Source: Candidatus Binataceae bacterium (GTDB taxonomy: Bacteria; Desulfobacterota; Binatia; Binatales; Binataceae). From it: DNA of 64,000 nt. The notes under the pieces are model-generated. The model saw only the letters and a program-made list of their open reading frames with translations. It had not been told where the DNA came from and did no database searches. Shown piece after piece: positions 3,665 to 26,232 of the stretch (position 1 is its first letter; each line of letters begins with the position of its first letter). A program made the translations under genes and the position numbers. The stretch spans positions 64,203 to 128,202 of the forward strand of contig DASXMJ010000191.1 in assembly GCA_036495685.1 (NCBI GenBank), in the 5' to 3' direction.

Positions 3665-3667
3665 GCG

Positions 3668-4099: not shown

Positions 4100-4104
4100 G
4101 ACTA

Positions 4105-5930: not shown

Positions 5931-6073
5931 CCGGCGTCGGCCGTTCAGCCTTACGCAAAGCGAGCCGGGCGCGTCTTCTCACCAAGGAACGCAATTGGCG
6001 CTGTGTCCCGAGCCTCTGCTAAACCGAAGCACGGACCCGAGGGTTGGCATGGCACTCGGGCGGAGTTAAACCG

Positions 6074-7222
6074 ATGGATGAAGTTCTGGACAAGCAGGTA
6101 ATCGAGGCGGTGCGCCGGTTTGTGGAACGCGACGTCATGCCGGTGGCAAGCGAACTGGAGCATCGCGATGAGTACCCGCAGGAGCTGGTCGACAAAATGA
6201 AGGGGTTGGGTCTTTTTGGCGCCACCATCCCGGCCGCCCATGGTGGCCTCGGCCTTTCATTCAGCACCTACGCACGAGTCATGGAGGAGCTCTCGCGCGG
6301 ATGGATGAGCCTGGCGGGCGTGATCAACAGCCATCTGATCATGGCCTACATGATTGTCCATCACGGCACCGAGGCGCAGAAGCAATACTTTTTACCGGCG
6401 ATGGCTTCCGGCGAGAAGCGGGGCGGGCTGGCTTTGACGGAGCCGCACGCCGGCAGCGACGTGCAATCGATCCGCAGTACCGCGGTCCGTCGGGGCGACG
6501 ACTATTTTCTCTCGGGCAGCAAAATGTTCATTACCAATGCCCGTCACGGAACCATGCTAGCGGTTGCAGCCAAAACCAATCCGAAAGCCGAGCCGGCCTA
6601 TGCCGGAATCAGCATGTTTGCGGTCGAGAAGAACGCAAACGGGCCGACGGTCAGCCGCAACCTCAAGAAGCTCGGCTACAAAGGAATCGATACCTGCGAA
6701 GTTCTGCTCGAGGACTTTGCGGTGCCGGCCACGAGCCTGATCGGCGGCATCGAAGGGCAGGGCTTCAAGCAGGTGATGAGTGCGCTGGAAGTGGGAAGGA
6801 TCAACGTCGCGGCACGCGCGGTCGGAGTCGCGCAGGCCGCCTTTGAAAGCGCAATCCATTACGCGCAGCAGCGGACCGCCTTTGGCAAACCGATCGCGCA
6901 ACATCAGGCCGTGCAGTTGATGCTCGCCGACATGGGCACCCGCCTCGAAGCCGCGCGTCTGTTGGTAATCAGCGCTGCAGGAAAGAAAGATGCGGGCGAA
7001 CGGTGCGACGTCGAGGCCGGAATGGCCAAGCTCTTCGCCTCGGAAGCGTGTGCCAAGATCGCACTCGACGCGATGCGCGTGCTGGCCGGTTACGGCTTCA
7101 CGCAAGAGTTCCCAGTAGAGCGGTTTTACCGGGACGCCCCGCTGATGATGATCGGTGAAGGGACCAACGAAATCCAGTCGCTGGTGATCGCTCGAGGGCT
7201 CCTGGCCCGATATTCAATCTGA
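6074..7222 (+). CDS. Acyl-CoA dehydrogenase.
   Basis: ACAD N-terminal, middle and C-terminal regions (GLALTEPHAGSDV, catalytic region near RVLAGYGFTQEFPVERFYRDAPLMMIGEGTNEI). ATG at 6074 preferred over the TTG at 6044. Confidence 0.85.
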   Translation: MDEVLDKQVIEAVRRFVERDVMPVASELEHRDEYPQELVDKMKGLGLFGATIPAAHGGLGLSFSTYARVMEELSRGWMSLAGVINSHLIMAYMIVHHGTEAQKQYFLPAMASGEKRGGLALTEPHAGSDVQSIRSTAVRRGDDYFLSGSKMFITNARHGTMLAVAAKTNPKAEPAYAGISMFAVEKNANGPTVSRNLKKLGYKGIDTCEVLLEDFAVPATSLIGGIEGQGFKQVMSALEVGRINVAARAVGVAQAAFESAIHYAQQRTAFGKPIAQHQAVQLMLADMGTRLEAARLLVISAAGKKDAGERCDVEAGMAKLFASEACAKIALDAMRVLAGYGFTQEFPVERFYRDAPLMMIGEGTNEIQSLVIARGLLARYSI

Positions 7223-7285: not shown

Positions 7286-8503
7286 CTACGAGGCTTGCGG
7301 GGTGACCGGCTGTCCATCATGGAGCTGCGCCGGGGGCACTACGATCACGCTTTCGCCCCCGCTCAAGCCCTGCAGGACCTGGACACCGTCCTGGTATTCG
7401 CGCCCCAGCGACACTTCCATCCGGTGCGCGGTGTCCGCACGCACGACCCACACGTACTTCTGGTTGCCCTCCTCGACGACGGCCTTCTGGGGAACCAGGA
7501 CGAGCGCCGGCGCTTCTTCTTTAACTGCGGACCCGCCGAGAAATGAAATCTTGGCACTCATCTCGGGTTTGATAATGGCGAGGTCAGGGGTGAGGATATG
7601 AACCTCGACCTTGACGGTACCTTTCTGGCGGTCCGCTTCCGGATAGATCTTCACGACCCGTGCGTCGAATGAGCGATCCGGATACGCATCGAGGATCACG
7701 CTCGCCGACATCCCCATGGTGACCTTGGCGATGTCGCTCTCGTTGATATCGACCTCCGCGCGCATGTCCTCGGTGTCGGCGATCTGGGCGATGTCGGTGA
7801 CGCCGCCGCCGGCATTCGCACCACTAGCGTAGGTGATCATGTCGCCCACTTCGTGAATCTTGGTCAGCACCAGACCGTTGATCGGTGAGCGAATGACGCA
7901 CTGATCGACCAGGTATTTGTAGAAATCGATCCCGCTCTGGTCTTTTTTGAACGCGGCCTGCGCCTCGTTGAGCTTGTTTTCGGCCATATCGAGCTGGTCA
8001 CGGGTCGCGACGCCGGCCTTGAACAGCTCGCGCTGCCGGTCCGCCTGTGCTGCATACAGTTTGATATCTGCCTCGGCGAGGTCGCGATCGGCCATCGCCT
8101 GTCGCAGCTGTGCCTGATAGTCGCCGTCGTCGATGCGCGCCAGGATGTCACCCTTCTTGATGTGCTGGCCTTCCTCGATCGGCTCGGCAACAATCTGGCC
8201 GAGTTGCTTGGTTCCAACCGTGATGTACTTGTGCTGGGTGACGATATACCCGGAACCGGTCAGCAGGGTTCCTGGCTCTCCCGCCTGTTTGATGGTGACG
8301 AGCGCGGTTTGCACCTCGGGCGGGCGTCCAAGCGTACGCGCGTAGACCTGGTAACCGATCGCGGCGCAACCCGCGATGACCACCAGCGCCACGAGCGCGG
8401 GAACCAGACGGCCAGGGCGCGTCTCGGCCTTGCGCGCGATGCGGAGCGATTCGAGCTCGCGAATGCTTGAAGACGGGCGAGGTGATGACGGTTCAGTGCT
8501 CAT
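7286..8503 (-). CDS. Efflux-pump periplasmic adaptor (HlyD/MFP family) of the MacAB-type ABC efflux system.
   Basis: N-terminal TM anchor, coiled-coil region and beta-barrel/MP domains. The ORF stays open upstream to 9106 in an Arg-rich frame across the permease gene, but the ATG at 8503 (MSTEPSS) follows directly after the permease stop. Confidence 0.8.
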   Translation of the reverse strand: MSTEPSSPRPSSSIRELESLRIARKAETRPGRLVPALVALVVIAGCAAIGYQVYARTLGRPPEVQTALVTIKQAGEPGTLLTGSGYIVTQHKYITVGTKQLGQIVAEPIEEGQHIKKGDILARIDDGDYQAQLRQAMADRDLAEADIKLYAAQADRQRELFKAGVATRDQLDMAENKLNEAQAAFKKDQSGIDFYKYLVDQCVIRSPINGLVLTKIHEVGDMITYASGANAGGGVTDIAQIADTEDMRAEVDINESDIAKVTMGMSASVILDAYPDRSFDARVVKIYPEADRQKGTVKVEVHILTPDLAIIKPEMSAKISFLGGSAVKEEAPALVLVPQKAVVEEGNQKYVWVVRADTAHRMEVSLGREYQDGVQVLQGLSGGESVIVVPPAQLHDGQPVTPQAS

Positions 8504-9674: not shown

Positions 9675-10814
9675 TCACGCAACCAGCCTTAAAGCATCGA
9701 CGATGTTCTGCCGCGCGGCGGAGCGTGCCGGGAACCACGCGCTCAGCAGCCCGATGAGACAGGCCGCACCGAGCGCCTCCACGACCACGATGGGAGGCAT
9801 CTGCAGGTTACTGATCCCGATCGCGGGAGAGCCGACCGCGAACACTCGCAGAATGATATACGCGCTCGCGCAACCGAGAATTCCGCCGCTTAAGCCGATA
9901 ATCAGCGACTCGCCTAGCAACAGCCCCAGGATGGTGCCGGAGCGAAAACCGATTGAGCGCATGACTGCGATTTCGCTGCGTCGCTCGCGAATCGACATTG
10001 CAGCGGTATTGGCCGCGACCAGTCCGATCGTGAGGACAACGATGAGGCCGAGAATTTCCGCCAGTTCGAAAAAGGCCCGATAGCCCTGTGTGAACGAGCC
10101 CATGAAGGCCGCTTCGGATTCACTGCGGGTTTCCGCCATGGAATTGGCGAACTGCTCGTCGACGGAGGCGATGATTTGCGGGATATTCTCTGACTTATCC
10201 GCGCGGACCCAAAACATGCTTACAAACCCGGGGCGCCCGGCGGCTTCTTCCAAGTAGTCACGCCGGAACAGGAGAAAATTCGGCGGCGCCTTGTCGTTCA
10301 TCACCCCGACGATGTTGAGCGTTACGTTGAACGGATAGACGGTTCCTCTGAGTTGAATCTGCTGACCGACGTGCAGCCCGAAGCGCTTCATGGTCCCGCC
10401 CGACACCAGGCACGCGGTGCGCAAGCGTTTGAAATCATCGAACGACGCCTTGGAAATTCCCCAGTCGTCCCACATGAGATCGACCTGGTCGGGATCGACT
10501 GCCAAGTTCGGGAATTGGTCATTGACCTCGTGGTAGATTCCGCCAAACCAGCTTTCCGGGACGACCGCGATAACGTGCGGTGTCGCCGCGATGCGCTGCT
10601 TGTAGGCCTCGGGCATCGAGTAGGTGACCCCAGCCTTGTTGTGAACCGCAAGCCGCAACGACGATGCGCGATCGGCGAGAATCTGGCGCGCCAGGGTTGG
10701 GAAACTAACCAGCGCAGAGAAGATGAACAACGACACTGCGATTGAGAATACCGTCAAAAACGTCCGCCGCTTGCTACGCAGCAGATTCTTGAAGACCAGC
10801 ATCGTGAACTTCAT
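9675..10814 (-). CDS. ABC transporter permease, FtsX/MacB-like (first of two).
   Basis: MKFTMLVFKNLLRSKRRTFLTV N-terminus typical of FtsX-like permeases. Periplasmic domain plus C-terminal TM bundle. Confidence 0.8.
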   Translation of the reverse strand: MKFTMLVFKNLLRSKRRTFLTVFSIAVSLFIFSALVSFPTLARQILADRASSLRLAVHNKAGVTYSMPEAYKQRIAATPHVIAVVPESWFGGIYHEVNDQFPNLAVDPDQVDLMWDDWGISKASFDDFKRLRTACLVSGGTMKRFGLHVGQQIQLRGTVYPFNVTLNIVGVMNDKAPPNFLLFRRDYLEEAAGRPGFVSMFWVRADKSENIPQIIASVDEQFANSMAETRSESEAAFMGSFTQGYRAFFELAEILGLIVVLTIGLVAANTAAMSIRERRSEIAVMRSIGFRSGTILGLLLGESLIIGLSGGILGCASAYIILRVFAVGSPAIGISNLQMPPIVVVEALGAACLIGLLSAWFPARSAARQNIVDALRLVA

Positions 10815-10834: not shown

Positions 10835-11566
10835 CTACGCGCTCGCTCCCGCAGCCGCCGGCTGTGCGGCGGCCTTGCCGGGTTCGATTCCGGCCAGGAT
10901 GCCTTTGTCGAGCCGATACACGGTGTCGACGTAGCGCTCGGCGCGCGGATCGTGGGTAACCATCACGATGGTCTTGTGGAACTGCCGGTTAAGTTCGGTG
11001 AGCAGGTTCAGAATTTCTTCGGCCGATTTCGCATCGAGGTCACCGGTCGGCTCGTCGGCGACCACGATGGTGGGATCGGTGACGATGGCGCGGGCGATGG
11101 CCACGCGCTGCTCCTGGCCGCCCGACAGCTGGCGCGGATAGTGATCCATACGGTCGGACAGACCAACCACTTTGAGGGCAGTCTCGACGTGTTCGCGACG
11201 TTCTGCTTTGCGCAGGTGAGTCAGCAACAGCGGAAGTTCGACGTTTTCGAAGGCAGTTAGGACCGGGATCAGATTGTAGAATTGGAACACCAGCCCGATG
11301 TGGCGGGCGCGCCACGCCGCCAGATCGCGCTCCTTCATGGAAGTAATTTCCTCGCCCCCGACCGCGACCCGACCGGAGGTCGCGTGGTCGATTCCGGCGA
11401 TCAGATTCAGCATTGTGGTCTTGCCGGAACCGGACGGACCCATAATCGCGACGAAGCGTGCTTCGGGAACCTTGAGGGTCACGTCATCGAGCGCGCGAAC
11501 TTCGAACTCGTCGCGTTTGTAGACGCGAGTCACGTGGTCGATGTCGATCGCGTATTTTTCGTCCAT
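10835..11566 (-). CDS. ABC transporter ATP-binding protein (MacB/LolD-type ATPase).
   Basis: Walker [10 protein letters not shown]. Signature [14 protein letters not shown]. Walker [13 protein letters not shown]. Confidence 0.9.
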
Positions 11567-11592
11567 TCGCTTCTCCCTTGTGCGGTCTGCAT

Positions 11593-12153
11593 TTATCGCG
11601 CCGGGGCCGCTCGGCGCCGGGGACGCGCTCGGCCGTTGACCGAGAGCTTGTTTTTCACTTCGTCGAAGAGGCGGGCGAAGACCTCGGCCTTCGCATGGGT
11701 GACCGCATAGCCGATTTCGATCAGCGCCTTGCGAAACACGCTCTCGCCGTGCTGTTCCATGTCGTCGGCAAGCCAGCGCAGCATCTGGGCACGCTGCAGG
11801 TCTTCCTCGTGGACCTGGGCCATGTGGGTGAGTGCGGACTGCGGATCGTGATGCGCGAAATAGATTTTCACCTGCGCCTCATCGAATACGAACACTGGTT
11901 GTGCAGGCTCGCGGAGAGTTTTTAGGAAGCGCGCGCGTCCCGCCTCGGTGATCGCGTAGACCTTGCGCGAGCGCCGGCCGTGGCGCTCGACGCGTTGCGT
12001 CACCAAGCCATCGCGCGCCAGCTTCTTGAGCGCCGGGTAAAGCGAGCCGTCGCTCACGCGATAAAAAAATCCTACCGGGTTGCGAAATCGCCGCTTCAGG
12101 TCGTAGCCGGTAGCTTCGGAATCCATCAGAAAGCCGAGAATCGGAAACTTCAC
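11593..12153 (-). CDS. PadR family transcriptional regulator (winged helix).
   Basis: [21 protein letters not shown]...[16 protein letters not shown] is the canonical PadR wHTH. The GTG at 12153 is preferred over the long N-terminal extension that reaches 12273. Confidence 0.7.
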
Positions 12154-12319
12154 GTCGATCCGCGGGGTGGTCTGCTGGACATCGCGTTGCCATGAGGATT
12201 CCTGGGCCGCGGTCGAACGCACCGGCAGCGGTGAAGTCCGTTGCAAGGTCGGCAGCGCCATAGCTCGTCTCAATAGCTCGACTTGAGATAACGAGTCAAG
12301 CTATTAAACCGAGACTTGC

Positions 12320-12841
12320 TCACCGGCCAGGCAGGTACATGGTGAATGCGCGCTTCCAGTTGCTCGGGCCGGTCAGGGCCGGGATGTGCCGCATCGCGCC
12401 GTGCATCTCCTCCTGCTCGGCGAGAGCAGGTTCCGTGCCGAAGACCCGGTCCCAGAACGGGCTGGTCACCCCAAAAATCGCATTCGGCCGATGAGTATGA
12501 TGAGCAAGATGGCGGAGACGGAGACGGGTTTCGAGCCGATTGCGCGGGCGCACAAAATGGATTCGGTAGTGCACGGCTTCGTACCCGACGAATCCCCCCA
12601 CCACTCCAAGGAAGAAAAAGGTTGCCGGACGGAAGCCGGAAAACGTAATCAGCGTAAGGGTTATGGTGAGCAGCGGCAGCCAGGCCCGGGCCGTAAACAC
12701 GGCGTGGGGGTCGCGGTGGTGTACGTCGTGGAGTGGGCTGACGAAGGTCTGAAAACGATGGCTTAGCGGACCGTGGATCACGTATTCCAGCAGCGTCCAG
12801 GCGCCGAGTCCGCCCGCGAACAGAACCGCGCACCCCAGCAT
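12320..12841 (-). CDS. Fatty-acid-hydroxylase-superfamily membrane enzyme, CrtZ-like (beta-carotene 3-hydroxylase-like).
   Basis: About 174 aa with four TM segments and His boxes (HGPLSH, HDVHHRDPH, HYRIHF, HLAHHTH) characteristic of the di-iron membrane hydroxylase/desaturase family. Size and box spacing resemble CrtZ. The overlapping ORF at 12270..12833 in another frame is rejected. Confidence 0.55.
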   Translation of the reverse strand: MLGCAVLFAGGLGAWTLLEYVIHGPLSHRFQTFVSPLHDVHHRDPHAVFTARAWLPLLTITLTLITFSGFRPATFFFLGVVGGFVGYEAVHYRIHFVRPRNRLETRLRLRHLAHHTHRPNAIFGVTSPFWDRVFGTEPALAEQEEMHGAMRHIPALTGPSNWKRAFTMYLPGR

Positions 12842-12993
12842 GCCTTTAGAGTAAGCCGCTGGCGAGGGGGCGGCAAATGCAGTCACGCGACTGCTCACGG
12901 GTGCATCCGGGGGGCTGCAGGGTGGGTCGCGCGAGGGCGGCGAATTGGTTGCCCTTAGTTCAATATTGAAGTATATCAGCAATTGAATATCGA

Positions 12994-13011
12994 AACGCGC
13001 AAAATCGCGTT
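12994..13011. promoter_or_regulatory. Perfect inverted repeat AACGCG-N6-CGCGTT in the divergent hydroxylase/PadR versus oxygenase promoter region. Candidate PadR-type operator.
   Basis: Seen directly in the sequence. Sits within a locally AT-rich stretch (12961-12993, aatattgaagtatatcagcaattgaatatcg) immediately upstream of the oxygenase RBS. Confidence 0.35.
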
Positions 13012-13026
13012 ACCGGAGTGGTCCCC

Positions 13027-14394
13027 ATGTGGAACTCGGACAATCCTTTTCTCAACGGAAACTATGCCCCCTGGCGCGAAGAGGGTGACGCCTGCGACTT
13101 GGAGGTCGAGGGCGAAATTCCGCGCGAGCTTAGAGGAGCGCTCTACCGGATAGGGCCCAACCCGCACTTCAAGCCGGGAGGACGTTACCACTGGTTTGAC
13201 GGCGACGGGATGGTGCACGGCTTCATTCTTAAGGATGGGCGCGCGGCGTACCGCAACCGCTACGTGATGACCGAGGGGCTACGCGCGGAGATGAAAGCGG
13301 GACGGGCACTGTTCGGCGGACTGCTCGAAGCGGCCAAAGAATTGCCTGCAGAGACACCTCCCTTCAAGAACGCGGCGAACACCAACATCATTGGCTATGC
13401 GAACCGGCTGCTTGCGCTGTTTGAGGCGGCACTGCCCCACGAGCTGGAGCCGCTCACGCTCGCCACGGTGGGTCTCTATAATTTCGGCGGCAAAGTCAGT
13501 GGCCCGGTCACGGCGCACCCGAAATTCGACCCGCAGAACGGCGATCTGTTATTTTTCGGCTATCAACCGTTTCCACCTTATGTGACGTGGTATCGCGCCG
13601 ATCGAGCCGGCAATCTGCTCGAAGCGCGCCCGATCGACAGCGGCCTTGCGGTGATGATGCATGACTTCGTGACCACCGACAATTACGCGATTTTTTTCGC
13701 GTGCCCCTCGGTTTTTCGCATCGAGAATCCGCCGGCCGGAAAACCGCTGCTGAACTGGGAGCCGCAGCACGGAACCCGTATCGGCGTCATGAGCCGGCGG
13801 ACTGGTGAAGTGAAGTGGTTTGCGGCGGAGGCGTTCTTCGTCTTCCACTTTCTCAATGCGTATGAACAGAACGACACGCTGATCGTCGATGGATGCCGGA
13901 TGAGTGCGCTGGATATGAGCGGCAACAATTTCGGGCAGCCTCCGTTTCCTTGGCGCTGGCGCCTCAACCTCGCTGACGGGTCGGTTAAAAGTGAGCAACT
14001 GGAAGACTACGTAGGCGAGTTTCCACGTCTCGACGAGCGTCGCGCCGGCAAGCCGCATCGCTTCGGTTATCTGGCCGCCCGAGAGCGGAGTTCGAGGGGC
14101 TTCGATGAGGTGGGATTTGATTGTGTCGCGAAGCGTGATTTCCAGACTGGCAAGACGGAATTTTTGAAACTTGGTGAGGGACGGATGCCGGGAGAGCCGG
14201 TGTTTGTGCCGCGCGGCGGCAATGCTTCCGAAGATGACGGATGGGTGATGTCGGTGTGGTACGACCCCTCGCTGAACTCCAGCGAGTTGGTAATTCAGGA
14301 GGCGGGCGATTTTGCCGGCCGCCCGGTCGCGCGAGTCAAGGCACCGCATCGCGTACCGTTCGGTTTCCACGGCAATTGGGTGCCTGAAGCCTGA
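13027..14394 (+). CDS. Carotenoid cleavage oxygenase family protein (RPE65/CCD/apocarotenoid or lignostilbene dioxygenase).
   Basis: N-terminus NPFLNGNYAPWREEGDACDLEVEGEIPRELRGALYRIGPNP and His-containing segments (HDFVTTDNY, FHFLNAYE, FHGNWV) typical of the family. GGAG RBS 10 nt upstream of ATG 13027. Confidence 0.85.
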   Translation: MWNSDNPFLNGNYAPWREEGDACDLEVEGEIPRELRGALYRIGPNPHFKPGGRYHWFDGDGMVHGFILKDGRAAYRNRYVMTEGLRAEMKAGRALFGGLLEAAKELPAETPPFKNAANTNIIGYANRLLALFEAALPHELEPLTLATVGLYNFGGKVSGPVTAHPKFDPQNGDLLFFGYQPFPPYVTWYRADRAGNLLEARPIDSGLAVMMHDFVTTDNYAIFFACPSVFRIENPPAGKPLLNWEPQHGTRIGVMSRRTGEVKWFAAEAFFVFHFLNAYEQNDTLIVDGCRMSALDMSGNNFGQPPFPWRWRLNLADGSVKSEQLEDYVGEFPRLDERRAGKPHRFGYLAARERSSRGFDEVGFDCVAKRDFQTGKTEFLKLGEGRMPGEPVFVPRGGNASEDDGWVMSVWYDPSLNSSELVIQEAGDFAGRPVARVKAPHRVPFGFHGNWVPEA

Positions 14395-15096
14395 GTGAAG
14401 AATTCGAATCCAAAAGCGTCTCCGCCCGCCGCACGGAACCCCTTGGAATCAAAGAAGCGGGGGGCGGGGGGCGGCGGGGCAACGCCGGTGAAAGCGTCAC
14501 TGGAACTAGCGCTGCTCGGGCTCATCGCAGCTGCGCCGCGCATCTGCGGCTACGACATCTCCAGGATTTTCAATCTGTCGATGCGCCATTTCTGGCATGC
14601 GCACCCGGGACAGATCTACCCGACGCTTGCACGCATGGAACGCGAGGGCTGGATCAGCAGCCGCGAGCTAATCCAGCGCGGACGGCCAAACAAGCGACTG
14701 TTCGCGATCACAGCGACGGGCCGCGAAGCCCTCGAGCGATGGCTTGAAAGCCCGTACGAGAAGCTCAAGCTCAAGCACGCACCGCTTTTGAAAACGCTTT
14801 ATCTCGGGCATCTGGGCGCTGGCCGCGCGCTTGCGAAATTCGCCGAGCAGCGCGCTGGCTGCCTCGCCTATCTCGAAGAGCTGCGTGGAATCGAACGCGA
14901 CTTTTTCGCACAAGGCGGTTACGGCAGCGCACACCAGATGTTCTCGTACTTCACGCTACGCTACGGAATTGGCTTTATGGAGGAGAGCGTCCGCTGGTGT
15001 GACTGGGCGACGGAGGAAATCGAACGCAATCGCAGTCTGTTCTCTATCGATGCAGAGCAGGCCAAGCCCGAGCAACGCAAATTCGCGCGTCGCTGA
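14395..15096 (+). CDS. PadR-family-like transcriptional regulator with a C-terminal extension.
   Basis: wHTH segment LALLGLIAAAPRICGYDI...IYPTLARMEREGWI. GTG at 14395 overlaps the oxygenase stop. An alternative GTG lies near 14478. Confidence 0.6.
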   Translation: MKNSNPKASPPAARNPLESKKRGAGGGGATPVKASLELALLGLIAAAPRICGYDISRIFNLSMRHFWHAHPGQIYPTLARMEREGWISSRELIQRGRPNKRLFAITATGREALERWLESPYEKLKLKHAPLLKTLYLGHLGAGRALAKFAEQRAGCLAYLEELRGIERDFFAQGGYGSAHQMFSYFTLRYGIGFMEESVRWCDWATEEIERNRSLFSIDAEQAKPEQRKFARR

Positions 15097-15366
15097 ACTC
15101 GCGTATGATTCTGGGAGTCTCTTAGAAGTCACCGCGCAAGCCTACGGCCTCGCTTGTGTTTTCGTCCTGCTCCCGTACCCCAGGTGACCAAAAGCCTTGT
15201 TGCCAGACTCGGCATCGAGTGGCCGTTGGTCGCGATCAAACGTTGTCTGCCGACCGCGTTGCGGGTTGGGCGAAATGTTTCTTCACACTCGGGCCCGAAC
15301 CGCATGGCGTCGGCTCTGCGGGTCCAATAGGCTGTGGGCGTTGTTTGTGGGAGTTGCTCACCTTAG

Positions 15367-17187
15367 ATGAACCAGCTGTCCGGGTCCGCCGCGTCGTCTT
15401 CAGCTGCGTCCGAGGGTAGCGCAACGCGCCCCAGACGTGCGCACCGCCGGTTCCTGGTCGAGCTGATCAAACCATCGCACTATGACGACGACGGTTACGT
15501 GATCCAATGGTGGCGCGGATGGATACCGTCCAACTCGCTCTCCTGCCTGTATGGACTCGCGATCGATTCCAAAGCTCGTCGCGTACTCGGCGAGGACGTT
15601 GAGATCGAAGTTGCGGCATATGATGAAACCAACCAGGTAGTTCCCCTGCGGCGAATAATCCGTCGCTTTCGGCGCAATCGTTTCTGTGGCGTGGTCTGTC
15701 TGGTGGGAGTTCAGAGCAATCAATTTCCGCGCGCGATGGATATTGCGCGCGTGCTGCGCCGCAGCCAGATCCCGGTCGTTATGGGCGGTTTTCACGTCAG
15801 CGGCTGCGTAGCGATGCTGCCCGCGATGCCGCCCGAGTTGAAGGACGCCCAAGACCTGGGCGTGACCCTGTTCGCGGGCGAGGCGGAGGGCCGCTTCGAT
15901 GAGATTCTGAGAGCTGCCTATCAAGGAAGGCTCGCGCCGCTCTACAACTTTGTTGACCAGCTGCCCGCGCTCAACGACCAGCCGACCCCCTATCTGCCGG
16001 CAAAGCTCATCCGCCACAACCTCGGAAATATCAGCGCGTTCGATGGCGGCCGCGGCTGTCCGTTCAGCTGCAGCTTCTGCACCATCATCAATGTGCAAGG
16101 ACGCAAGTCGCGCTATCGCAGCGCCGACGACGTGGAGCGACTCATCCGCGCCAACCACGGATCCGGGGTCGCGACCTACTTCATCACCGACGACAACTTC
16201 GCACGCAATCGAAACTGGGAAGCAATTCTCGATCGCATTATCGAGTTGCGCGAAACGCACCACCTACGCATTCATCTGACCATCCAGGTCGATACCCTGT
16301 GCCACAAGATTCCGCGCTTCGTTGAGAAGGCGGCGCGTGCCGGCTGCAAGCGGGTTTTCATCGGGCTGGAGAACATCAACCCTGCCAGCTTAAAGGGCGC
16401 GTCAAAGGGGCAGAACCGGATCACCGAGTACCGCGCCATGCTGCAGTCCTGGCGCAAGGCGGGTGTGCTTACCTACGCGGGTTACATCCTCGGCTTCCCC
16501 AGCGATACTCCCGAAACCATCGCGCGCGATATCGCGATCATTCAGCGCGAGCTGCCGATCGATCTGCTGGAATTCTTCATGCTGACCCCGCTGCCTGGTT
16601 CCAAGGATCATCTCGACTTGCACCTCCGCGGCGGAAAGCTTGATGAAGACTTGAACCGCTACGACCTCGAGCACGTGACCACGGCTCATCCCCAGATGGG
16701 CCGCGCCGAGTGGCAGGCCGTCTACGATCGCGCCTGGTCCCTGTACTATTCGGCGGAACACAACGAGACCCTCATCAAGCGCGCGATCGGCAGTGGTATC
16801 AATCCTGCGCGTCTGACCTCGATGATCTTCACCTTCTACGCAAGCCACGAGTTTGAGAAAGTGCATCCGCTGCAGAGCGGCGTGTTTCGGCGCAAGCGTC
16901 GCAAGGACCGCCGCAATGGACTGCCGCTGGAACCGCCGCTCGCTTTTTACGCCCGTCGGGGGCGTGAAATGTTCGCGACCTATGTCCCCGCCATTCGATT
17001 TCTGTGGAGGCTGACGCGCCTGCGGCATCGACTGCTCAAGGATCCGACCCTTCGCACCTATCGGGATCTGGCTACCACCCATCTGGAAAACGAACTCGCC
17101 GAAACGCTCGGAATCTATGAAGCGACCGAAGCCGCGCGCCGGGTGGCGACCCAAGCTCGACTGCGGTCCGCTGCGGCCCGAGGGTAA
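15367..17187 (+). CDS. B12-binding radical SAM protein (class B, BchE/P-methylase-like) with a DUF4070-like C-terminal region.
   Basis: N-terminal cobalamin-binding-like domain (RRFLVELIKPSHYDDDGY...VVMGGFHVS). Radical SAM CxxxCxxC box GRGCPFSCSFCTI. Long conserved C-terminal domain. Confidence 0.8.
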   Translation: MNQLSGSAASSSAASEGSATRPRRAHRRFLVELIKPSHYDDDGYVIQWWRGWIPSNSLSCLYGLAIDSKARRVLGEDVEIEVAAYDETNQVVPLRRIIRRFRRNRFCGVVCLVGVQSNQFPRAMDIARVLRRSQIPVVMGGFHVSGCVAMLPAMPPELKDAQDLGVTLFAGEAEGRFDEILRAAYQGRLAPLYNFVDQLPALNDQPTPYLPAKLIRHNLGNISAFDGGRGCPFSCSFCTIINVQGRKSRYRSADDVERLIRANHGSGVATYFITDDNFARNRNWEAILDRIIELRETHHLRIHLTIQVDTLCHKIPRFVEKAARAGCKRVFIGLENINPASLKGASKGQNRITEYRAMLQSWRKAGVLTYAGYILGFPSDTPETIARDIAIIQRELPIDLLEFFMLTPLPGSKDHLDLHLRGGKLDEDLNRYDLEHVTTAHPQMGRAEWQAVYDRAWSLYYSAEHNETLIKRAIGSGINPARLTSMIFTFYASHEFEKVHPLQSGVFRRKRRKDRRNGLPLEPPLAFYARRGREMFATYVPAIRFLWRLTRLRHRLLKDPTLRTYRDLATTHLENELAETLGIYEATEAARRVATQARLRSAAARG

Positions 17188-17312
17188 TTCACCGCACTAG
17201 TCGCGAAGGGCTTGCGTGCGCCCGACCATGGAGTACCTCGATGCCCGTGCAAACGCGCACCGTCTCTGCTATGTGCGGGGTGGCACTGACGATTGGGTCA
17301 CAGAGACGCGCG

Positions 17313-18518
17313 ATGAGCGGGGCGCTCGACGACATAAAGGTCATTGAATACGCCGAGATGGTGTCGGGACCGATCTGCGGCAAGATGTTCTCCGACCTGG
17401 GCGCCGAAGTCATCAAGATAGAAGCACCCGGGGCGGGCGACCCCGCACGCCAGTATCCCCCCTTTCCCGACGACCAGCCCCATCCCGAAAAAAGCGGGAT
17501 GTTTCTCTATCTGAACACCGGCAAGAAGAGTCTCACGCTGGATCCTGCGACGCCCGCCGGTGGCGAAGTCTTCAAGCGTCTGATCTCTAAGGCCGATTTC
17601 TTAATCGAGAACCATCCGGCCGGGTTTCTCGAGCGCATCGGACTACCTTATCCAGCGCTCCACGCGCTGAATCCTCGCTTGATTGTCGTATCGATCACTC
17701 CGTTTGGACAAACCGGTCCCTATCGGGATTGGAAGGGCTCCGATCTTATCGAGTGGGCGATGAGCCTCACCGGCTACAATACTCCCACCCTGATCGATGA
17801 CGGCGAGCGCGAGAATCCGCTGCGCGCTCCAGGTCATATTGCCGACATGATGGGAGGCACCAATGCCGCGGCGGCGGCGATGATGGCTTTGTTTCAACGC
17901 GAGTTGACCGGAGACGGTCAATGGATCGATGCGCCGTGCTGGCAGGCGACGGTCAACACCTCAAAAATCGAAATGGCGGCCTACAGCTACTTGGGAATCC
18001 CCTTCAGCCGGATGCGGGGCCAGACCCTGGTCGGCTTGGAGCCGATGGCGTGCCGCGACGGCTACGTGTACACGCTCTGGGCCGCCGATTCTCACTATCA
18101 GGCGCTCAAGAAACTGCTCGGCAATCCCGATGGGCTTGATACCGAGTTGTTCGACACGCTGGCAGGACGGCAGCAAAACGACGACGTTTTGCGCCTGGTC
18201 ATTCGCGAAGAACTCAAGAAGCACGACATGAAATACCTCGTAGACGAAGGTCAGAAACTGGGTCTCACGATCGGACCCGTCTACAAGGTGTCACAGGCGG
18301 CGAATCATCCACACCTCGCCGCGCGCGATGCATTCGTCGCCATCGAGCATCCGGTGGCAGGTCGTTTCCTGTTCCCGCGGCAGATGGTTTCGATGACGGC
18401 CACGCCAGCAATTCCGTCGCGCGCACCCATGCTCGGCGAGCACAACAAAGAGATACTCGACAGACTTGCGATTCCGCGCGAAGACCAGCACGGCCTTCAC
18501 GCGGCGGGAGTTATCTGA
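17313..18518 (+). CDS. CoA-transferase family III (CaiB/BaiF) paralog 1.
   Basis: N-terminal LDDIKVIEYAEMVSGPICGKMFSDLGAEVIKIE signature. Confidence 0.8.
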   Translation: MSGALDDIKVIEYAEMVSGPICGKMFSDLGAEVIKIEAPGAGDPARQYPPFPDDQPHPEKSGMFLYLNTGKKSLTLDPATPAGGEVFKRLISKADFLIENHPAGFLERIGLPYPALHALNPRLIVVSITPFGQTGPYRDWKGSDLIEWAMSLTGYNTPTLIDDGERENPLRAPGHIADMMGGTNAAAAAMMALFQRELTGDGQWIDAPCWQATVNTSKIEMAAYSYLGIPFSRMRGQTLVGLEPMACRDGYVYTLWAADSHYQALKKLLGNPDGLDTELFDTLAGRQQNDDVLRLVIREELKKHDMKYLVDEGQKLGLTIGPVYKVSQAANHPHLAARDAFVAIEHPVAGRFLFPRQMVSMTATPAIPSRAPMLGEHNKEILDRLAIPREDQHGLHAAGVI

Positions 18519-19738
18519 TGGCACCGCTTCCGCTGGAAGGAATCCGCGTGGCCGATTTCAGCTGGATCATCAATGGGCCGCAAATTGCCCAGTGGCTGGC
18601 GACCATGGGCGCCGAAGTGATCAAGATAGAGTCGCAGGTTTATATCGATATTGGTCGCATCAATCCTGCGGGCATGGCGGATGGAAAGCCGGGACCGAAT
18701 CGTAACGGCTTCTACCACATGCTCAACTACGGCAAGAAAGCGATTAACCTGAACCTGGGGACACCGAAAGGCTACGATCTCGCTTGCGACCTGATCCGGA
18801 AAAGCGACCTGGTAATCGAATGCTTTCCACGTCCCGTGTCAGAACGTCTGAATCTGACTTACGCGCGAATCAAGGCGGTCAAACCCGATATCGTGATGAT
18901 TTCGGTGTCGCTGTTGGGTAAGACCGGCACCGAGCCGTCGAGTTGGGTCGGATGGGGCCCGATGGCATGTTGTTTCGCCGGAATGTTCGATGCCCAGGGC
19001 TATCCGGGCGGTCCGCCGCGGCAAACCGGAGGGACCTGGCCTGACTACGCGATCGCTTCGGCGGTGGTGTTCCACACACTCGCCGCGTTGCGCCATAGGA
19101 AGCGTACCGGCGAGGGTCAATGGATAGATGCAAGCATGGGTGAGACCGTCATCAGTCAGATGAACGAATGGTTCATGGACTACTTCATGAACCATCGCGA
19201 CCGCGGGCAGTGGGGGAACCGGGACGCGATGATGGCACCGCACAACACGTACAAGTGCAAGGGCGAGGATCGGTGGATCGCGATTGCCGTCAGCAACGAC
19301 GCCGAATGGAACGCCCTGTGCGCGGTGGCGCTGCATCCCGAGTGGGCGCGCGATGCGAGGTTCGTCGATCGGGCAGCGCGGTTGAATCATCGTGAGGAAA
19401 TCGACGCTCTGCTCCGCGACTGGACGCGTTCCCACGATCATCGCGAACTGGCCGCAACCTTGCAGAGAGTGGGCGTTCCGGCGGGCCCGGTGCTGGACAG
19501 CGTGGAGCTTCATGAAGATAGCCATCTATGGAAATGGGGCTATTGGATGAAGATGGCTCATCATGAGGTTGGCGAGCGAATCATTCCGGGCATGCCGGTG
19601 AAAATGAGCAACGTGCCGGAGCTGAACTACTCGATGCCGCCCGACGTCGGACAGCACAATCGCGAGATTTTCGGTGGGCTGCTCGGCCTTAGCGACGCCG
19701 AAATCCAAACCCTCATGGAGCAGAAGGTCATCTATTGA
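18518..19738 (+). CDS. CoA-transferase family III (CaiB/BaiF) paralog 2.
   Basis: LEGIRVADFSWIINGPQIAQWLATMGAEVIKIE. Start overlaps the upstream stop (ATGA at 18516-18520). Confidence 0.85.
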   Translation: MAPLPLEGIRVADFSWIINGPQIAQWLATMGAEVIKIESQVYIDIGRINPAGMADGKPGPNRNGFYHMLNYGKKAINLNLGTPKGYDLACDLIRKSDLVIECFPRPVSERLNLTYARIKAVKPDIVMISVSLLGKTGTEPSSWVGWGPMACCFAGMFDAQGYPGGPPRQTGGTWPDYAIASAVVFHTLAALRHRKRTGEGQWIDASMGETVISQMNEWFMDYFMNHRDRGQWGNRDAMMAPHNTYKCKGEDRWIAIAVSNDAEWNALCAVALHPEWARDARFVDRAARLNHREEIDALLRDWTRSHDHRELAATLQRVGVPAGPVLDSVELHEDSHLWKWGYWMKMAHHEVGERIIPGMPVKMSNVPELNYSMPPDVGQHNREIFGGLLGLSDAEIQTLMEQKVIY

Positions 19739-20499
19739 ACGCGGGATTTCTCGCAGGCAAGGTGACGCTCGTTACCGGAGCGGGCGGCGGAATTGGTCGG
19801 GCGACGGCAGTGGTCCTGGGGCAGGCGGGCGCCAAGGTCCTGGTCTCGGATGTCTCGACGCGTCGCGGTGAGGAGACCGTCGGTCTGGTCCGGGCTGCTG
19901 GCGCCGAAGCGGAATTCTTCAAGGCCGATGTATCGCGGGCCGCCGAGGTAGAGACTCTGATTACGGCAGCGGTGACGAGATGGGGTCGCCTGGATTGTGC
20001 GCATAACAACGCTGGAATCTCCGGGACCGTGGTGAACGTCGCCGACGACACCGAGGAGAACTGGGACCGCACCCTGGCGGTAGATCTGAAGGGTGTCTGG
20101 CTCTGCATGAAATTTGAGATCAAGCAGATGCTCAAGCAGGGGGGCGGATCGATAGTAAATACTGCCTCGACTGCGGGCCTGCTCGGCGCAGTTCGGATGG
20201 GTGCCTATGCGGCCGCCAAGCATGGCGTGGTTGGCCTAACCCGGACCGCGGCGCTCGAATATGCTCGTTCCAACATCCGGGTAAATGCGATCTGTCCGGG
20301 CGTGGTCGGAACGCCCGTCATCCTCGGGTGGTTTGAGGCCAACGAGCGACTCAAGAAGGCCATGATTGCGCAGGAGCCGATAGGCAGGGTGGGGGAACCG
20401 GAAGAAATCGGCAATGCAGTGGCGTGGCTCTTTTCTGATCGTGCATCGTTCGTCACCGGCGCGGCGATTCCGGTAGACGGCGGCATGACCGCGCAGTAG
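19735..20499 (+). CDS. SDR family oxidoreductase.
   Basis: TGAGGGIG Rossmann motif, NNAG and catalytic YxxxK region. TTG start overlaps the upstream stop. Confidence 0.85.
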   Translation: MNAGFLAGKVTLVTGAGGGIGRATAVVLGQAGAKVLVSDVSTRRGEETVGLVRAAGAEAEFFKADVSRAAEVETLITAAVTRWGRLDCAHNNAGISGTVVNVADDTEENWDRTLAVDLKGVWLCMKFEIKQMLKQGGGSIVNTASTAGLLGAVRMGAYAAAKHGVVGLTRTAALEYARSNIRVNAICPGVVGTPVILGWFEANERLKKAMIAQEPIGRVGEPEEIGNAVAWLFSDRASFVTGAAIPVDGGMTAQ

Positions 20500-20534: not shown

Positions 20535-21642
20535 ATGCCGCAGTTCATTCCGGGCATCCAGCTCAACCAGCTCTTCTATAACGAGGCGGTGGAGCCTGTC
20601 TTGGCTTCCGCATTCCCGGGGCTGCGTTATTCCGCGGCACTAATCGGCTACGGATCCGACGTGCTTGGTTTTGATTCGGCGCGTTCCACCGATCACGAGT
20701 GGGGGCCGCGCCTGGTGATCTTCCTTGCCGAGAACGAGCGCGAGGCGGTGGGCCCTTCCATCGACGAAGTTCTCTCGACCCGTCTTCCAGTTGAATTTCG
20801 AGGCTATCCCACCCAACTTCACGAAGCCCGATGAGAATCGGGTCCGAATCATGACGTCCGCTGAAACGGATAAGGTACAGCATCACGTTTATCTTCATAG
20901 CCTGCGCGAGTTCGTCGGACGCTATTTGGGCGTGGTCCCGGACGCCGCGTTCTCCAATATCGACTGGCTGCTGATGTATCAAAACACGCTGTTGGAACTC
21001 ACCGCTGGGGCCGTCTATCACGATGGCCTCGAGGAACTGATCCCGTTACGCGAGCGGCTAAAGTGGTATCCACGCGAGGTCTGGCTGTACATGCTCGCAT
21101 CGCAATGGATTCGCCTTGCCCAGGAAGAGCACTTTCCCAGCCGATGCGGTGAAGACGGCGATGAAGTCGGGTCGCGCATCAATGCGGCGCGATTGGTCCG
21201 CGACGTCATGCGCTTGTGCTTTCTGCTCGAACGCCGATACGCCCCCTACAGTAAATGGCTCGGTACCGCCTTTGCGCGTCTGAATTGCGCGCGTGAAATC
21301 GAGCCTCTGTTGCACGCCGCGCTCGCCGACGACTCCTGGCCAGGCCGCGAACGGCACCTGTGCGCCGCTTATGAGGCGGTTGCACGCATGCACAACGTGA
21401 TGGGTATCTTTGCACGACTGGATGGCGGCACCATGTCTTTCCGCCAACGGCCCTATCGAGTACTCGGCGCCGGACGATTCGCGAAAGTGGTCAGCGATGA
21501 GATCCGCGACCCGCAGTTGCGGAAGATTTACGAGAGCGTAGGCCCGATAGGTTCGATCGATCAATTTGCGGACAGCACCAACCTTCTTATGCGCTCCGAC
21601 CTCCGCACCCGTCTTCGAGTGCTATTCGAAAGGGTCGGTTGA
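20535..21642 (+). pseudogene. Nucleotidyltransferase-fold, DUF4037-like protein interrupted by a +1 frameshift near 20805-20820.
   Basis: ORF 20535..20834 (GYGSDVLGFD...STDHEWGPR, an NTase-fold GS..D.D-type motif) continues in the +1 frame as ORF 20725..21642. The two frames abut at ...LPVEFRGYPT / NFTKPDENRV within the homopolymer-rich run cccacccaacttc. This is either an assembly indel or a genuine pseudogene. Confidence 0.5.
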
Positions 21643-21908: not shown

Positions 21909-23489
21909 ATGGTTAAGAAAATCGCTGCCGTACTCGGCGGCGTGTTGTTGGGGCTGACTATCGCGTTTGCACGCGCGGGGGCATTTCCATTCTGGGGATC
22001 CAGCGATAAAGGGGAGGCGCAGGCCGATAGTTCTGCGCCGCACGCTGTTTCGTCACCCCTGATTGCGCCGGCACCAGCCGCGCCAAACTCACCCGAGCCC
22101 AATGAACGCAGTGGCGTAGTGGGCTCCTTCGCACCGTTGGTGAAACACGTATGGCCGACGGTCGTGAGCGTACGGGTGGTCCAGGACGTAAAGTCATCCG
22201 GGATGGCGATGGCGCCTTTCGGAGAGGGCGATGAGGGTGGTGGCGGCGGTGACGAAGGAATGGGCCCCCCTCCCGGTGGCGATCCCTTCGAACAGTTCCG
22301 CCGATTCTTTGGCCAGATACCCAAGGAATACAAGCAACGTGGGCTCGGCTCAGGCGTGATCATTTCACCCGACGGCTACATCCTGACCAACAACCACGTG
22401 GTTGGTGCCGCCGACGAAATCAAGGTCACACTCAGCGACAAACGGGAATTCAGTGCGAAGGTCATCGGCAAGGATCAGAAGACCGACCTCGCCCTGATCA
22501 AGATCAGCACGAAAGACGCGCTGCCCAGTGCGCTGCTGGGAGATTCCGACAAGACTGAAATCGGCGATTGGGTCATCGCCATCGGAAATCCTTTTGACGT
22601 CGGCATGACGGTCACCGCCGGTATCGTGAGTGCCAAGGGTAAGATCCTCGGTGGCAACTATGACGACTACCTTCAGACCGATGCCTCGATTAACCCGGGC
22701 AACTCGGGTGGGCCATTGTTCAATACCGACGGCCAGGTGATCGGAATTAACACCCTCATCTACACGCGCACCGGCGCCAACAACGGCATCGGCTTCGCCA
22801 TCCCCATCGATCTGGCCCGCAACGTTGTGGAGCAGCTCAAGGCGCACGGACGGGTCGTTCGCGGCTGGCTGGGTGTCGAGATTCAAGAGGTGACCGCGGA
22901 TCTCGCGCAATCGTTCGGACTGAGTAAGCCCGAAGGTGCACTGGTTGCAGCCGTCGACAAGAGCAGCCCAGCCGACAAGGCCGGCATTGAGCGTGGCGAC
23001 ATCGTCATCAAGTTCAACGGTAAAGATGTCCACGACGAGCACGAGCTGCCGACCTATGTTGCGCAGACTCCGATAAACAAGACCGTCGATGTTATCGTGC
23101 TGCGTAACGGCAAACCTAAAACGCTGCAGGTAACCATCGCCGAGCTGAAGGAGCAGGATGTCGCCAGCGCCAAAAGCCAGGAGCCAGGTGGCGACTGGGG
23201 TATGAAGGTTGGTGACATCACTCCGGAGCTCGCGCAGCAGTTCCATCTCAACGCGGGAAAAGGAGTGGTTGTGCGTGGCGTCCAGCCGGATAGCCCCGCT
23301 GCGGAGGCGGGATTGCAGCCGGGCGACCTGATTCTCGAGGTCGGCTCTAACAAGGTTGCTGACGTAAAGGACTTCATAGAGAAGGCGAAGGATGCCAAGA
23401 GCAGCAAGAAGCCGACGCGCATCCTGCTCCAACGCGGGAGCGCCACTCTCTACGTGGTGGTGAAGCCGGCTGAAGAAGGCCAGGGCTAA
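21909..23489 (+). CDS. htrA: Periplasmic serine endoprotease DegP/HtrA family (trypsin-like domain + two PDZ domains).
   Basis: Catalytic-triad regions (TNNHVV, DLALIKI, GNSGGPL). Gly/Glu-rich linker. Two PDZ segments. Signal peptide present. Confidence 0.9.
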   Translation: MVKKIAAVLGGVLLGLTIAFARAGAFPFWGSSDKGEAQADSSAPHAVSSPLIAPAPAAPNSPEPNERSGVVGSFAPLVKHVWPTVVSVRVVQDVKSSGMAMAPFGEGDEGGGGGDEGMGPPPGGDPFEQFRRFFGQIPKEYKQRGLGSGVIISPDGYILTNNHVVGAADEIKVTLSDKREFSAKVIGKDQKTDLALIKISTKDALPSALLGDSDKTEIGDWVIAIGNPFDVGMTVTAGIVSAKGKILGGNYDDYLQTDASINPGNSGGPLFNTDGQVIGINTLIYTRTGANNGIGFAIPIDLARNVVEQLKAHGRVVRGWLGVEIQEVTADLAQSFGLSKPEGALVAAVDKSSPADKAGIERGDIVIKFNGKDVHDEHELPTYVAQTPINKTVDVIVLRNGKPKTLQVTIAELKEQDVASAKSQEPGGDWGMKVGDITPELAQQFHLNAGKGVVVRGVQPDSPAAEAGLQPGDLILEVGSNKVADVKDFIEKAKDAKSSKKPTRILLQRGSATLYVVVKPAEEGQG

Positions 23490-23662
23490 ACCATCTTTCC
23501 CCACGAGCTCACGCACGGCGTGGCGGAATTTTCCGCCACGCCGTGCGTCTTTTCTGGTTAACCCTTGGTGGCGGGGACCGCATCCCGAGGCGCGCTCACG
23601 CCCGACCTCTGGCTCTTTCCCGCGAGAGCATCGACAGCTAGCGTCGAAGGTCGGTGCGCACG

Positions 23663-26116: not shown

Positions 26117-26232
26117 GGGCGAGTCGAAAAAGCGACCGGAGCGCAATTTGCGCGCGTTGCACAAACCCACTAAATCAAATTCCTAGCAGCCGCCGCTTGG
26201 CTCGCCCAGGCCTTCGCGTAGGAGACATCACG

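Follow-up and report, generated by a model that had tools for sequence, protein, structure and literature searches.

A PadR-linked carotenoid cleavage dioxygenase homologue and an FA2H/Scs7-like hydroxylase in Candidatus Binataceae: probably separate units rather than one apocarotenoid pathway

The 64 kb window analysed here, from an uncultured soil bacterium of the Candidatus Binataceae (phylum Binatota), carries a gene for a small membrane hydroxylase that lies divergent to a gene for an oxygenase of the carotenoid cleavage dioxygenase (CCD)/RPE65 family. We consider it probable that the region around these two genes consists of units under separate control, gathered over time around an older pair formed by the hydroxylase and an HtrA-type protease, and not of one apocarotenoid pathway as the initial annotation had proposed. 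The presence of the hydroxylase without the oxygenase in many related loci, the similarity of the hydroxylase to lipid hydroxylases rather than to CrtZ and the distinct candidate operators of two PadR-controlled units all point in this direction. The value of the analysis is mainly corrective: superfamily names and adjacency had suggested a pathway in which hydroxylation precedes cleavage, and the checks of residues and neighbourhoods do not support it.

Conservation of the gene neighbourhood

Pfam profile searches gave strong family matches for the genes at 7.3–23.5 kb of the window, which are real. In order of transcription, the minus strand encodes the FA_hydroxylase protein (read from 12841 to 12320), a PadR regulator (PadR1), an ABC ATPase, two MacB_PCD/FtsX permeases and an HlyD-type adaptor. 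The plus strand encodes the CCD/RPE65 oxygenase, a second PadR regulator (PadR2), a radical SAM protein, two family-III CoA-transferases, a short-chain dehydrogenase/reductase (SDR), a DUF4037 protein and the HtrA-type protease; PadR2 stands directly 3′ of the oxygenase and is followed, after a gap of 270 nucleotides (nt), by the radical SAM gene. The gene families first named for this locus (FA_hydroxylase superfamily, CCD, two PadR, ABC pump and radical SAM) are thus all present, and the divergent arrangement and the minus-strand string joining the hydroxylase to PadR1 and the pump are as first described, with gene starts slightly corrected. The JGI annotation of a near-identical contig (L169), made independently, has the same gene set, with a hydroxylase of 173 amino acids (aa), an oxygenase of 455 aa and a PadR2 of 206 aa.

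We located the window proteins by tblastn in 160 related loci, 80 of them hydroxylase-seeded (one genome per species) and 80 CCD-seeded metagenome loci. Among the hydroxylase-seeded loci, a CCD gene was immediately divergent in 39, lay 0.8–3.5 kb off in eight and was absent in 30, absence being scored only where at least 1.5 kb of flank was available; the remaining three had no flank. The two genes are frequent neighbours but can be separated. In the CCD-seeded loci with a CCD of at least 61% identity, PadR2 was the next gene in 18 of the 19 with a downstream flank, and the hydroxylase lay upstream in 16 of 21. None of the 53 loci of a sister CCD clade (45–52% identity) contained the hydroxylase or a PadR gene, and a TetR homologue was encoded just upstream of the CCD in 31 of them. 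One such locus (L085, 8001–14140) encodes a sister-clade CCD (50% identical) followed by a Zn-dependent alcohol dehydrogenase; about 2 kb downstream lie genes for AtuA (acyclic terpene utilisation) and for an enoyl-CoA hydratase, a hint that some relatives act in isoprenoid breakdown.

In the hydroxylase tree, adjacency of hydroxylase and HtrA occurs in both main branches. The CCD–PadR2 pair occurs in one branch only and is missing there from scattered loci (L003, L010, L026, L055, L031 and L018/L034/L078), and PadR1 with its pump is found in just some sub-branches. HtrA lies directly 3′ of PadR2 in most loci and beside the hydroxylase where the CCD cassette is absent. The combinations seen include the hydroxylase alone, the hydroxylase with the CCD and no pump, and the hydroxylase with the pump and no CCD. 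The simplest reading of this distribution is an old hydroxylase–HtrA pair with two cassettes, CCD–PadR2 and PadR1 plus pump, inserted on either side. The homologues come almost all from metagenome-assembled genomes of Candidatus Binataceae, and synteny shared inside a single family says little for or against a functional link.

The features of the locus are as follows.

7286–8503, minus strand: HlyD / RND (resistance-nodulation-division)-type membrane-fusion adaptor, 405 aa, closing the PadR1–pump operon (Pfam HlyD_3 and HlyD_D23); start at 8503, the Met of MSTEPSS, and a 405-aa gene also called in L169
8509–9672, minus strand: ABC permease 1, 387 aa (Pfam MacB_PCD PF12704 and FtsX PF02687; 387-aa gene in L169)
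9675–10814, minus strand: ABC permease 2, 379 aa (Pfam MacB_PCD PF12704 and FtsX PF02687)
10835–11566, minus strand: ABC ATPase, LolD/MacB-like, 243 aa (Pfam ABC_tran, 119.7 bits)
11593–12153, minus strand: PadR1 regulator, heading the pump operon (Pfam PadR, 64.7 bits); start uncertain, 12153–12261
12264–12313, no strand: inverted repeat in the gap that separates the hydroxylase stop codon from PadR1; overlaps a TTGACT −35 box and is a candidate operator for PadR1
12320–12841, minus strand: FA2H/Scs7-like di-iron membrane hydroxylase, 173 aa, without a cytochrome b5 domain (PF04116, hhalign, Foldseek)
12949–12994, plus strand: CCD–PadR2 promoter with candidate PadR2 operator (sequence, palindrome and cross-locus layout)
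13027–14394, plus strand: predicted CCD-superfamily non-heme-iron alkene-cleaving dioxygenase, 455 aa (PF03055, 483 bits)
14476–15096, plus strand: PadR2 regulator with Vir_act_alpha_C domain (Pfam PadR and PF10400); start probable, open reading frame (ORF) open from 14395
15367–17187, plus strand: radical SAM protein, 606 aa, lineage-specific neighbour (PF04055, 66.2 bits)
17313–20499, plus strand: two family-III CoA-transferases and an SDR, belonging, like the radical SAM gene, to the lineage-specific block inserted between PadR2 and HtrA (Pfam CoA_transf_3 twice, adh_short)
21909–23489, plus strand: HtrA/DegP-family protease, old syntenic anchor (assigned from its translated sequence)

The DUF4037 protein (20725–21642), in the interval between SDR and HtrA, was detected among the hydroxylase-seeded loci in L001 only and may be another recent insertion at the locus.

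The hydroxylase and the oxygenase

The hydroxylase matches PF04116 (FA_hydroxylase) with 58 bits (cut-off 31), and all its homologues begin at the Met of the 173-aa form. Ten histidines are invariant in 24 aligned homologues, arranged as HX4H (His23/28), HX2HH (His38/41/42), HX3H (His91/95) and HX2HH (His111/114/115), and four His motifs form the di-metal centre in the FA2H family (PMC10002949). A profile built from the 24 homologues aligned to the catalytic domain of Scs7p with an hhalign probability of 98.4% (E 8.6e-15, 34% identity over 131 aligned columns), versus 1.6% (E 0.03) for CrtZ. The CrtZ reference was verified by its 100% identity to a gene next to crtB on a P. ananatis plasmid; PGAP calls this true CrtZ a ‘sterol desaturase family protein’, so that this name is uninformative. 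Scs7p was also the sole match of a phmmer search against PDB sequences (E 1.9e-7) and the sole PDB match found by Foldseek (4zr1, probability 1.0, TM score 0.61, 30% identity) with a structure model of mean pLDDT (predicted local distance difference test) 81.5. No match to the hydroxylase was found by tblastn in 72,556 plasmids, though 109 of these carry crtZ, and the JGI names of its homologues are ceramide fatty acyl 2-hydroxylase, none being named CrtZ.

The protein is accordingly most likely an FA2H/Scs7-like lipid hydroxylase, predicted to act on a lipid acyl chain at C2, and the CrtZ-type carotenoid ring hydroxylase proposed at first was rejected on the hhalign comparison; a hydroxylase of the sphingolipid-hydroxylase kind was one half of what the initial annotation had listed as refuting it. 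It shares with Scs7p and FA2H the four-helix membrane core and the same four His motifs, but has just 173 aa and no fused cytochrome b5 domain, and its conserved C-terminal tail (PLxGPSNWRRA) falls beyond the part of Scs7p that was compared. The plant enzymes FAH1 and FAH2 likewise have no fused cytochrome b5 domain, and functional FA2H relatives are reported in myxobacteria (PMC10002949). CrtZ of Pantoea ananatis (175 aa) belongs to the same Pfam superfamily, PF04116, and is similar in size and in its four His motifs, but the hydroxylase has no detectable specific similarity to it and does not lie beside crt genes. The hydroxylase is multi-copy in Binataceae, and its paralogues stand near acyl-CoA dehydrogenase, enoyl-CoA hydratase and luciferase-like genes; a search for a constant partner of the paralogues without a CCD returned just loosely recurring fatty-acid catabolism genes.

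The oxygenase matches the full length of PF03055 (RPE65/CCD; 483.1 bits, cut-off 27, profile positions 1–469 of 469). With residues numbered on the 458-aa ORF counted from 13018, and with LsdA and ACO reference sequences verified against PDB and aligned with the window protein and 45 Binataceae orthologues, His167, 215, 277 and 451 align with the iron ligands of LsdA (His167/218/282/472) and ACO (His183/238/304/484). All 45 orthologues keep three of these four histidines and 42 of them keep the fourth, and Glu136 aligns with the second-shell Glu150 of ACO. The seven-bladed propeller, the four His and the Glu150-type second shell are shared with Synechocystis ACO (2BIW) and Novosphingobium NACOX1, and a hydrophobic residue stands at the position of ACO Trp149, within a closely similar LLAL(F/W)E..PH.LEP motif.

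In lignostilbene dioxygenases (LSDs), Tyr101 and Lys134 hydrogen-bond the 4-hydroxyl of the substrate and Phe59 stacks on its ring (PMC8191317). The oxygenase resembles LsdA, NOV1 and LSD4 in being compact, in its equal loop length and in keeping Phe59, but differs from them in this catalytic and substrate-binding pair: the position of Tyr101 is Leu in the window protein and in 44 of the 45 orthologues, and that of Lys134 is Phe in the window protein and Phe, Trp, Met, Leu or Tyr across the orthologues. Replacement of the pair makes a stilbene or phenylpropene substrate unlikely, and 4-hydroxystilbenes and phenylpropenes were set aside on these residues (Tyr101 to Leu, Lys134 to Phe), and with them the stilbene-like substrate offered in the initial annotation as an alternative to carotenoids.

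Scores against curated families were in agreement with a position apart from the known groups. The NCBIfam lignostilbene models stayed below their cut-offs (NF053778, 300.6 versus 800; NF053780, 235.4 versus 650), as did the best NCBIfam match, the apo-carotenoid 13,14-dioxygenase model of NACOX1 type (NF052295, 321.9 versus 675). Bit scores were 250 for plant CCD1, 226 for Synechocystis ACO and about 220 for LsdA and NOV1, with identities of 34.7% to ACO and 32.2% to LsdA, which places the protein, by sequence, roughly equidistant from all characterised CCD groups; the references checked were LsdA, ACO and the aligned part of CCD1. An AlphaFold2 model (predicted TM score 0.83) matched LsdA, ACO, NOV1, CAO1, CCD1, NdCCD and VP14 in Foldseek with probability 1.0 and TM scores of 0.75–0.85, the top neighbours being LsdA and a Pseudomonas LSD (0.83–0.85 for LSD structures versus 0.79–0.80 for ACO), a ranking that cannot separate stilbene-type from carotenoid-type CCDs since all fall within the same range.

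We take the membrane patch of ACO, VP14 and CCD1 to lie in the KAG–ANTN segment. In the oxygenase this segment (ALFGGLLEAAKELPAETPPFKNA) is charged and has 23 aa, as many as in LsdA, versus 27 in ACO and a visibly longer stretch in CCD1, and the model has a pLDDT below 50 at residues 84–117. The patch is described as hydrophobic in ACO, VP14 and CCD1 (PMC5133782). Besides this shorter, charged segment, the oxygenase differs from ACO and NACOX1 in being encoded with a PadR repressor and in scoring below the equivalog cut-off. Judged from these sequence features, it is a true CCD with a predicted substrate class that fits neither the stilbene type nor the ACO/CCD1 type. Our best guess at the substrate, and a weak one, would be a fairly soluble apocarotenoid- or isoprenoid-like polyene. 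Binatales are predicted to encode the synthesis of beta-carotene and zeaxanthin (PMC8262859), so that a carotenoid-derived substrate would be available in the lineage and is the most economical guess. A literature search for a CCD paired with PadR returned nothing relevant.

Promoters and candidate operators of the two PadR units

PadR2 matches Pfam PadR (PF03551, 54.4 bits, cut-off 27) and Vir_act_alpha_C (PF10400, 50.3 bits). The promoter of the CCD gene consists of a −35 box TTGCCC (12949–12954), a 17-nt spacer and a −10 box TATATC (12972–12977); a perfect palindrome, TTCAATATTGAA, lies within the spacer at 12959–12970, and a second, related site, TTGAATATCGAA, at 12983–12994. The layout (TTGAC, 16–18 nt, an AATAGT-like element, and a spacer dyad TTCAA..TTGrA) fits a strict pattern in 24 of the 40 divergent intergenic regions compared; the remaining ones, among them those of the window's own clade, show it in a looser form. 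The exact TTCAATATTGAA word occurs in just five of the 40 loci, the layout and not the word being what is conserved. Two matches of this type occur in the window, a count not above chance (reached in 29 of 100 shuffles), and the case for a PadR2 operator is made because of position and conservation across loci, not because of the number of sites in the window. PadR2 most likely represses the CCD–PadR2 cassette through this palindrome, its candidate operator. Pairing of a repressor gene with the gene of its enzyme, as also seen with TetR in the sister clade, is how inducible catabolism or detoxification is usually organised, rather than biosynthesis.

PadR1 matches Pfam PadR (PF03551) with 64.7 bits (cut-off 27) and is present in almost all loci where the pump genes stand beside the hydroxylase. 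Between the hydroxylase and PadR1 lies an inverted repeat with 20-nt arms (80% complementary), whose dyad core, ATAGCTTGACT-N10-AGTCGAGCTAT, occupies 12273–12304. The ATAGCT..AGCTAT dyad is present in 30 of 38 related loci that have the hydroxylase–PadR1 gap, and it is unique in the window, where none is expected by chance. As RNA, the repeat (12264–12313) folds with z = −3.6, without a U-tract. A terminator 3′ of the hydroxylase stop codon was rejected, there being no U-tract and the DNA being conserved across loci whose proteins have diverged; the lack of a U-tract makes the dyad better read as an operator overlapping the TTGACT −35 box. From its position, this dyad would be the candidate operator bound by PadR1.

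The pump has the parts of a MacB-type (type VII) system, namely an ABC ATPase, MacB_PCD/FtsX permeases and a membrane-fusion adaptor, and the PadR1–pump unit is predicted to be a PadR1-autoregulated tripartite efflux pump, outward transport being the presumed direction. The best NCBIfam match of the ATPase is LolD (226 bits, below the cut-off of 307.75); the ATPase is 81–99% identical in related loci with the pump operon beside the hydroxylase, and the HlyD adaptor is co-conserved with the pump genes in the tblastn comparison. As in LolCDE, there is a separate ATPase with two distinct permeases, and as in MacAB and DevBCA there is an HlyD adaptor. As in other PadR-controlled pumps, PadR heads the ABC-pump operon, here with a conserved dyad overlapping the promoter, an arrangement that presumably resembles LmrR–LmrCD.

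The hydroxylase may have a promoter of its own. On the minus strand, at 12842–12900, TTGCCG is followed by 17 nt, TACTCT, 6 nt and the ATG at 12841, which suggests a leaderless transcript; many orthologous loci have TTGCCA, 17 nt, TACGAT, about 7 nt and the hydroxylase ATG, with a GCAACGC...GCTTGC dyad near the −35 box.

The presence of two different dyads on the promoters of the two PadR operons argues for two independent PadR circuits. We infer how regulators and sites are paired, what the ligands and substrates may be and in which direction the pump transports, and on that footing the units might work as follows. PadR2 would sit on the palindrome in the promoter spacer and repress CCD–PadR2; a small lipophilic ligand, probably the oxygenase substrate, would release it; and the oxygenase would then cleave a conjugated C=C bond of this ligand or of a related compound to give two carbonyl products. 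Separately, the hydroxylase would 2-hydroxylate a lipid acyl chain, and the PadR1-controlled pump would act as a separate tripartite exporter. The initial proposal of a lipophilic small molecule under PadR control remains reasonable. The units may also cooperate functionally, being adjacent in many genomes, a step that the data do not require. Two conserved candidate PadR operators from an uncultured phylum could be used for ligand screening in vitro.

Competing explanations and neighbouring genes

Several points weigh against a region of separate units around an old hydroxylase–HtrA pair, or against parts of it. The hydroxylase tree that orders the insertions is a quick neighbour-joining tree, and the immediate divergent adjacency of hydroxylase and oxygenase in most loci of the orthologous hydroxylase clade is what a functional link between the two enzymes could produce. 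A strict sigma-70 scan of 11500–17400 found no promoter, and terminator matches there were at chance level; the promoters described above are weaker matches read by eye, found by aligning orthologous intergenic regions, and the candidate operators were assigned to their regulators by position and conservation. On the side of the substrate, the oxygenase has no long insert of the ACO/CCD1 type and its model is marginally closer to LSDs, which is what makes the guess of an apocarotenoid substrate a weak one.

One explanation that would unite the genes has the hydroxylase, oxygenase and pump acting on a single unsaturated or polyene membrane lipid, of which a fragment is exported, as a new remodelling or signalling route connected with envelope stress. 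The FA2H-like, lipid-directed hydroxylase would fit it, as would an oxygenase that matches no known substrate class and the adjacency of hydroxylase, CCD–PadR2, pump and HtrA in many Binataceae; pumps of MacB/Lol/Dev type, moreover, export lipidic cargo in other bacteria. We nevertheless regard it as unlikely, as the units combine freely across loci and the two different candidate operators suggest two signals, and to our knowledge no CCD acts on ordinary unsaturated acyl chains.

With similarly low expectation, the CCD–PadR2 clade and its TetR-linked sister clade could together represent a CCD subfamily with a new substrate class, comprising neither phenolic stilbenoids nor membrane-embedded carotenoids. 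Candidates would be soluble apocarotenoids, isoprenoids or other conjugated alkenes of soil origin, sensed directly by the co-encoded repressor, and in Binataceae the hydroxylase and pump would perhaps have been recruited for the lipophilic substrate or its aldehyde products. As an orphan clade that is widespread in Binataceae, paired with PadR and equipped with an intact iron site, the CCD–PadR2 oxygenases are a defined candidate for a new CCD substrate. The interest of the locus is otherwise modest: each component is a further member of a known family, ordinary accessory genes are involved, and the oxygenase clade is the one mildly interesting item in a region that would not surprise a specialist and opens no long-standing question.

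The pathway put forward initially, in which the hydroxylase hydroxylates a carotenoid ring, the oxygenase cleaves the product, the radical SAM enzyme methylates it and the pump exports a hydroxylated apocarotenoid signal, is in our judgement improbable. It gains from the frequent divergent adjacency (39 of 80 hydroxylase-seeded loci plus eight nearby, and 16 of 21 CCD-seeded loci), from an oxygenase without stilbene-binding residues, from the carotenoid synthesis predicted for Binatales (PMC8262859) and from the Pfam superfamily and four-motif His layout that CrtZ and the hydroxylase share. It conflicts, however, with a hydroxylase that is Scs7p-like rather than CrtZ-like (98.4% versus 1.6%), that occurs without the oxygenase in 30 loci and that is older than the oxygenase at this site, with separate promoters and candidate operators, with a radical SAM gene that is not co-conserved and stands alone elsewhere, and with the co-transcription of regulator and enzyme, which, as for TetR in the sister clade, is more typical of inducible breakdown or detoxification than of biosynthesis. 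Family searches of the 64 kb window found no phytoene synthase, phytoene desaturase or lycopene cyclase, bearing out the first report that carotenoid backbone genes are missing from it, and this too speaks against the pathway.

PadR regulators were first described as sensors of phenolic acids. A phenolics module, in which PadR senses a plant or lignin phenolic and the oxygenase is a lignostilbene, isoeugenol or vinylguaiacol dioxygenase, could draw on this, on the 300.6 bits of the NCBIfam lignostilbene model, on LsdA and Pseudomonas LSD as the closest Foldseek structures and on the KAG–ANTN loop of 23 residues as in LsdA, but is very improbable given Leu for Tyr101 in 44 of 45 orthologues, a hydrophobic residue for Lys134 in all and a score far under the LSD equivalog cut-off of 800. 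The habitats of Binatales, mostly acidic wetland, peat and forest soils (PMC8262859), would likewise suit it.

The radical SAM protein was at first described as a B12-binding enzyme, with DUF4070 suggested as a further domain, and as part of the unit. Its radical SAM core is confirmed (PF04055, 66.2 bits, with the CX3CX2C motif seen as CPFSCSFC in the translation), whereas the N-terminal B12-binding domain (PF02310) reaches 16.0–18.3 bits versus a cut-off of 32.1, over profile positions 40–97 only, and DUF4070 has no Pfam match in residues 401–606 even at E up to 10. All NCBIfam B12-radical-SAM models fall far below their cut-offs and no curated family cut-off is reached, and NCBI and UniRef give some homologues the name ‘B12-binding domain-containing radical SAM protein’. 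Proteins of this family (about 600 aa) are very numerous and have diverged little: each of the 8,000 candidates scored passes E 1e-10, and the top 120 of them, at 63% identity or more, include Binatus, Gammaproteobacteria and Steroidobacteraceae.

Among the 160 loci and L169, the radical SAM gene lies 3′ of PadR2 only in the window, L001, L002, L088, L089 and L169, the CCD match of the five related loci being 80–93% identical. In L004 and L090 (CCD 78–80% identical), as in most other loci, HtrA lies directly 3′ of PadR2. Close copies of the CoA-transferases and SDR (at least 80% identity) stand beside the locus only in L001, L002, L020 and L089, and L020 has them without the radical SAM gene, whose homologues at 65–78% identity stand alone in unrelated surroundings. 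The radical SAM gene is thus not co-conserved with the unit, which was an outcome that the initial annotation had named as refuting it. In the explanation that we favour, a recent insertion in one sub-lineage probably brought in this gene together with the two CoA-transferases and the SDR, and these four would have no functional relation to the older genes.

The other genes of the window are ordinary chromosomal ones (nadA, prfA, prmC, hisD, hisB, a HisA/HisF-family gene, a two-component system and CoA-transferases), and the window is rich in genes of acid and lipid catabolism. Four family-III CoA-transferase paralogues (17313–19738, 26197–27438 and 36865–38163) were found, together with an acyl-CoA dehydrogenase (6044–7222), an enoyl-CoA hydratase (41470–42243) and a luciferase-like monooxygenase (38332–39159). 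Just past HtrA, an FAD (flavin adenine dinucleotide)-dependent oxidoreductase (23654–24895) has FAD_binding_3 and Trp_halogenase matches and, with a sub-threshold Lycopene_cycl match (13.6 bits, cut-off 23.4), gives no evidence of a carotenoid gene. For a 780-aa ORF at 45995–48337 on the minus strand, Pfam gave nothing at E 1e-5. An AurF-like di-iron protein with a weak match (28.8 bits, cut-off 29.6) is encoded after a TetR regulator (39733–41433), and the Binataceae contigs L167 and L168 have a comparable AurF-like gene (3221–4255) some 2 kb upstream of the radical SAM homologue; both contigs also carry the same pair of sigma-54 response regulator and histidine kinase domains as the window at 97–2987.

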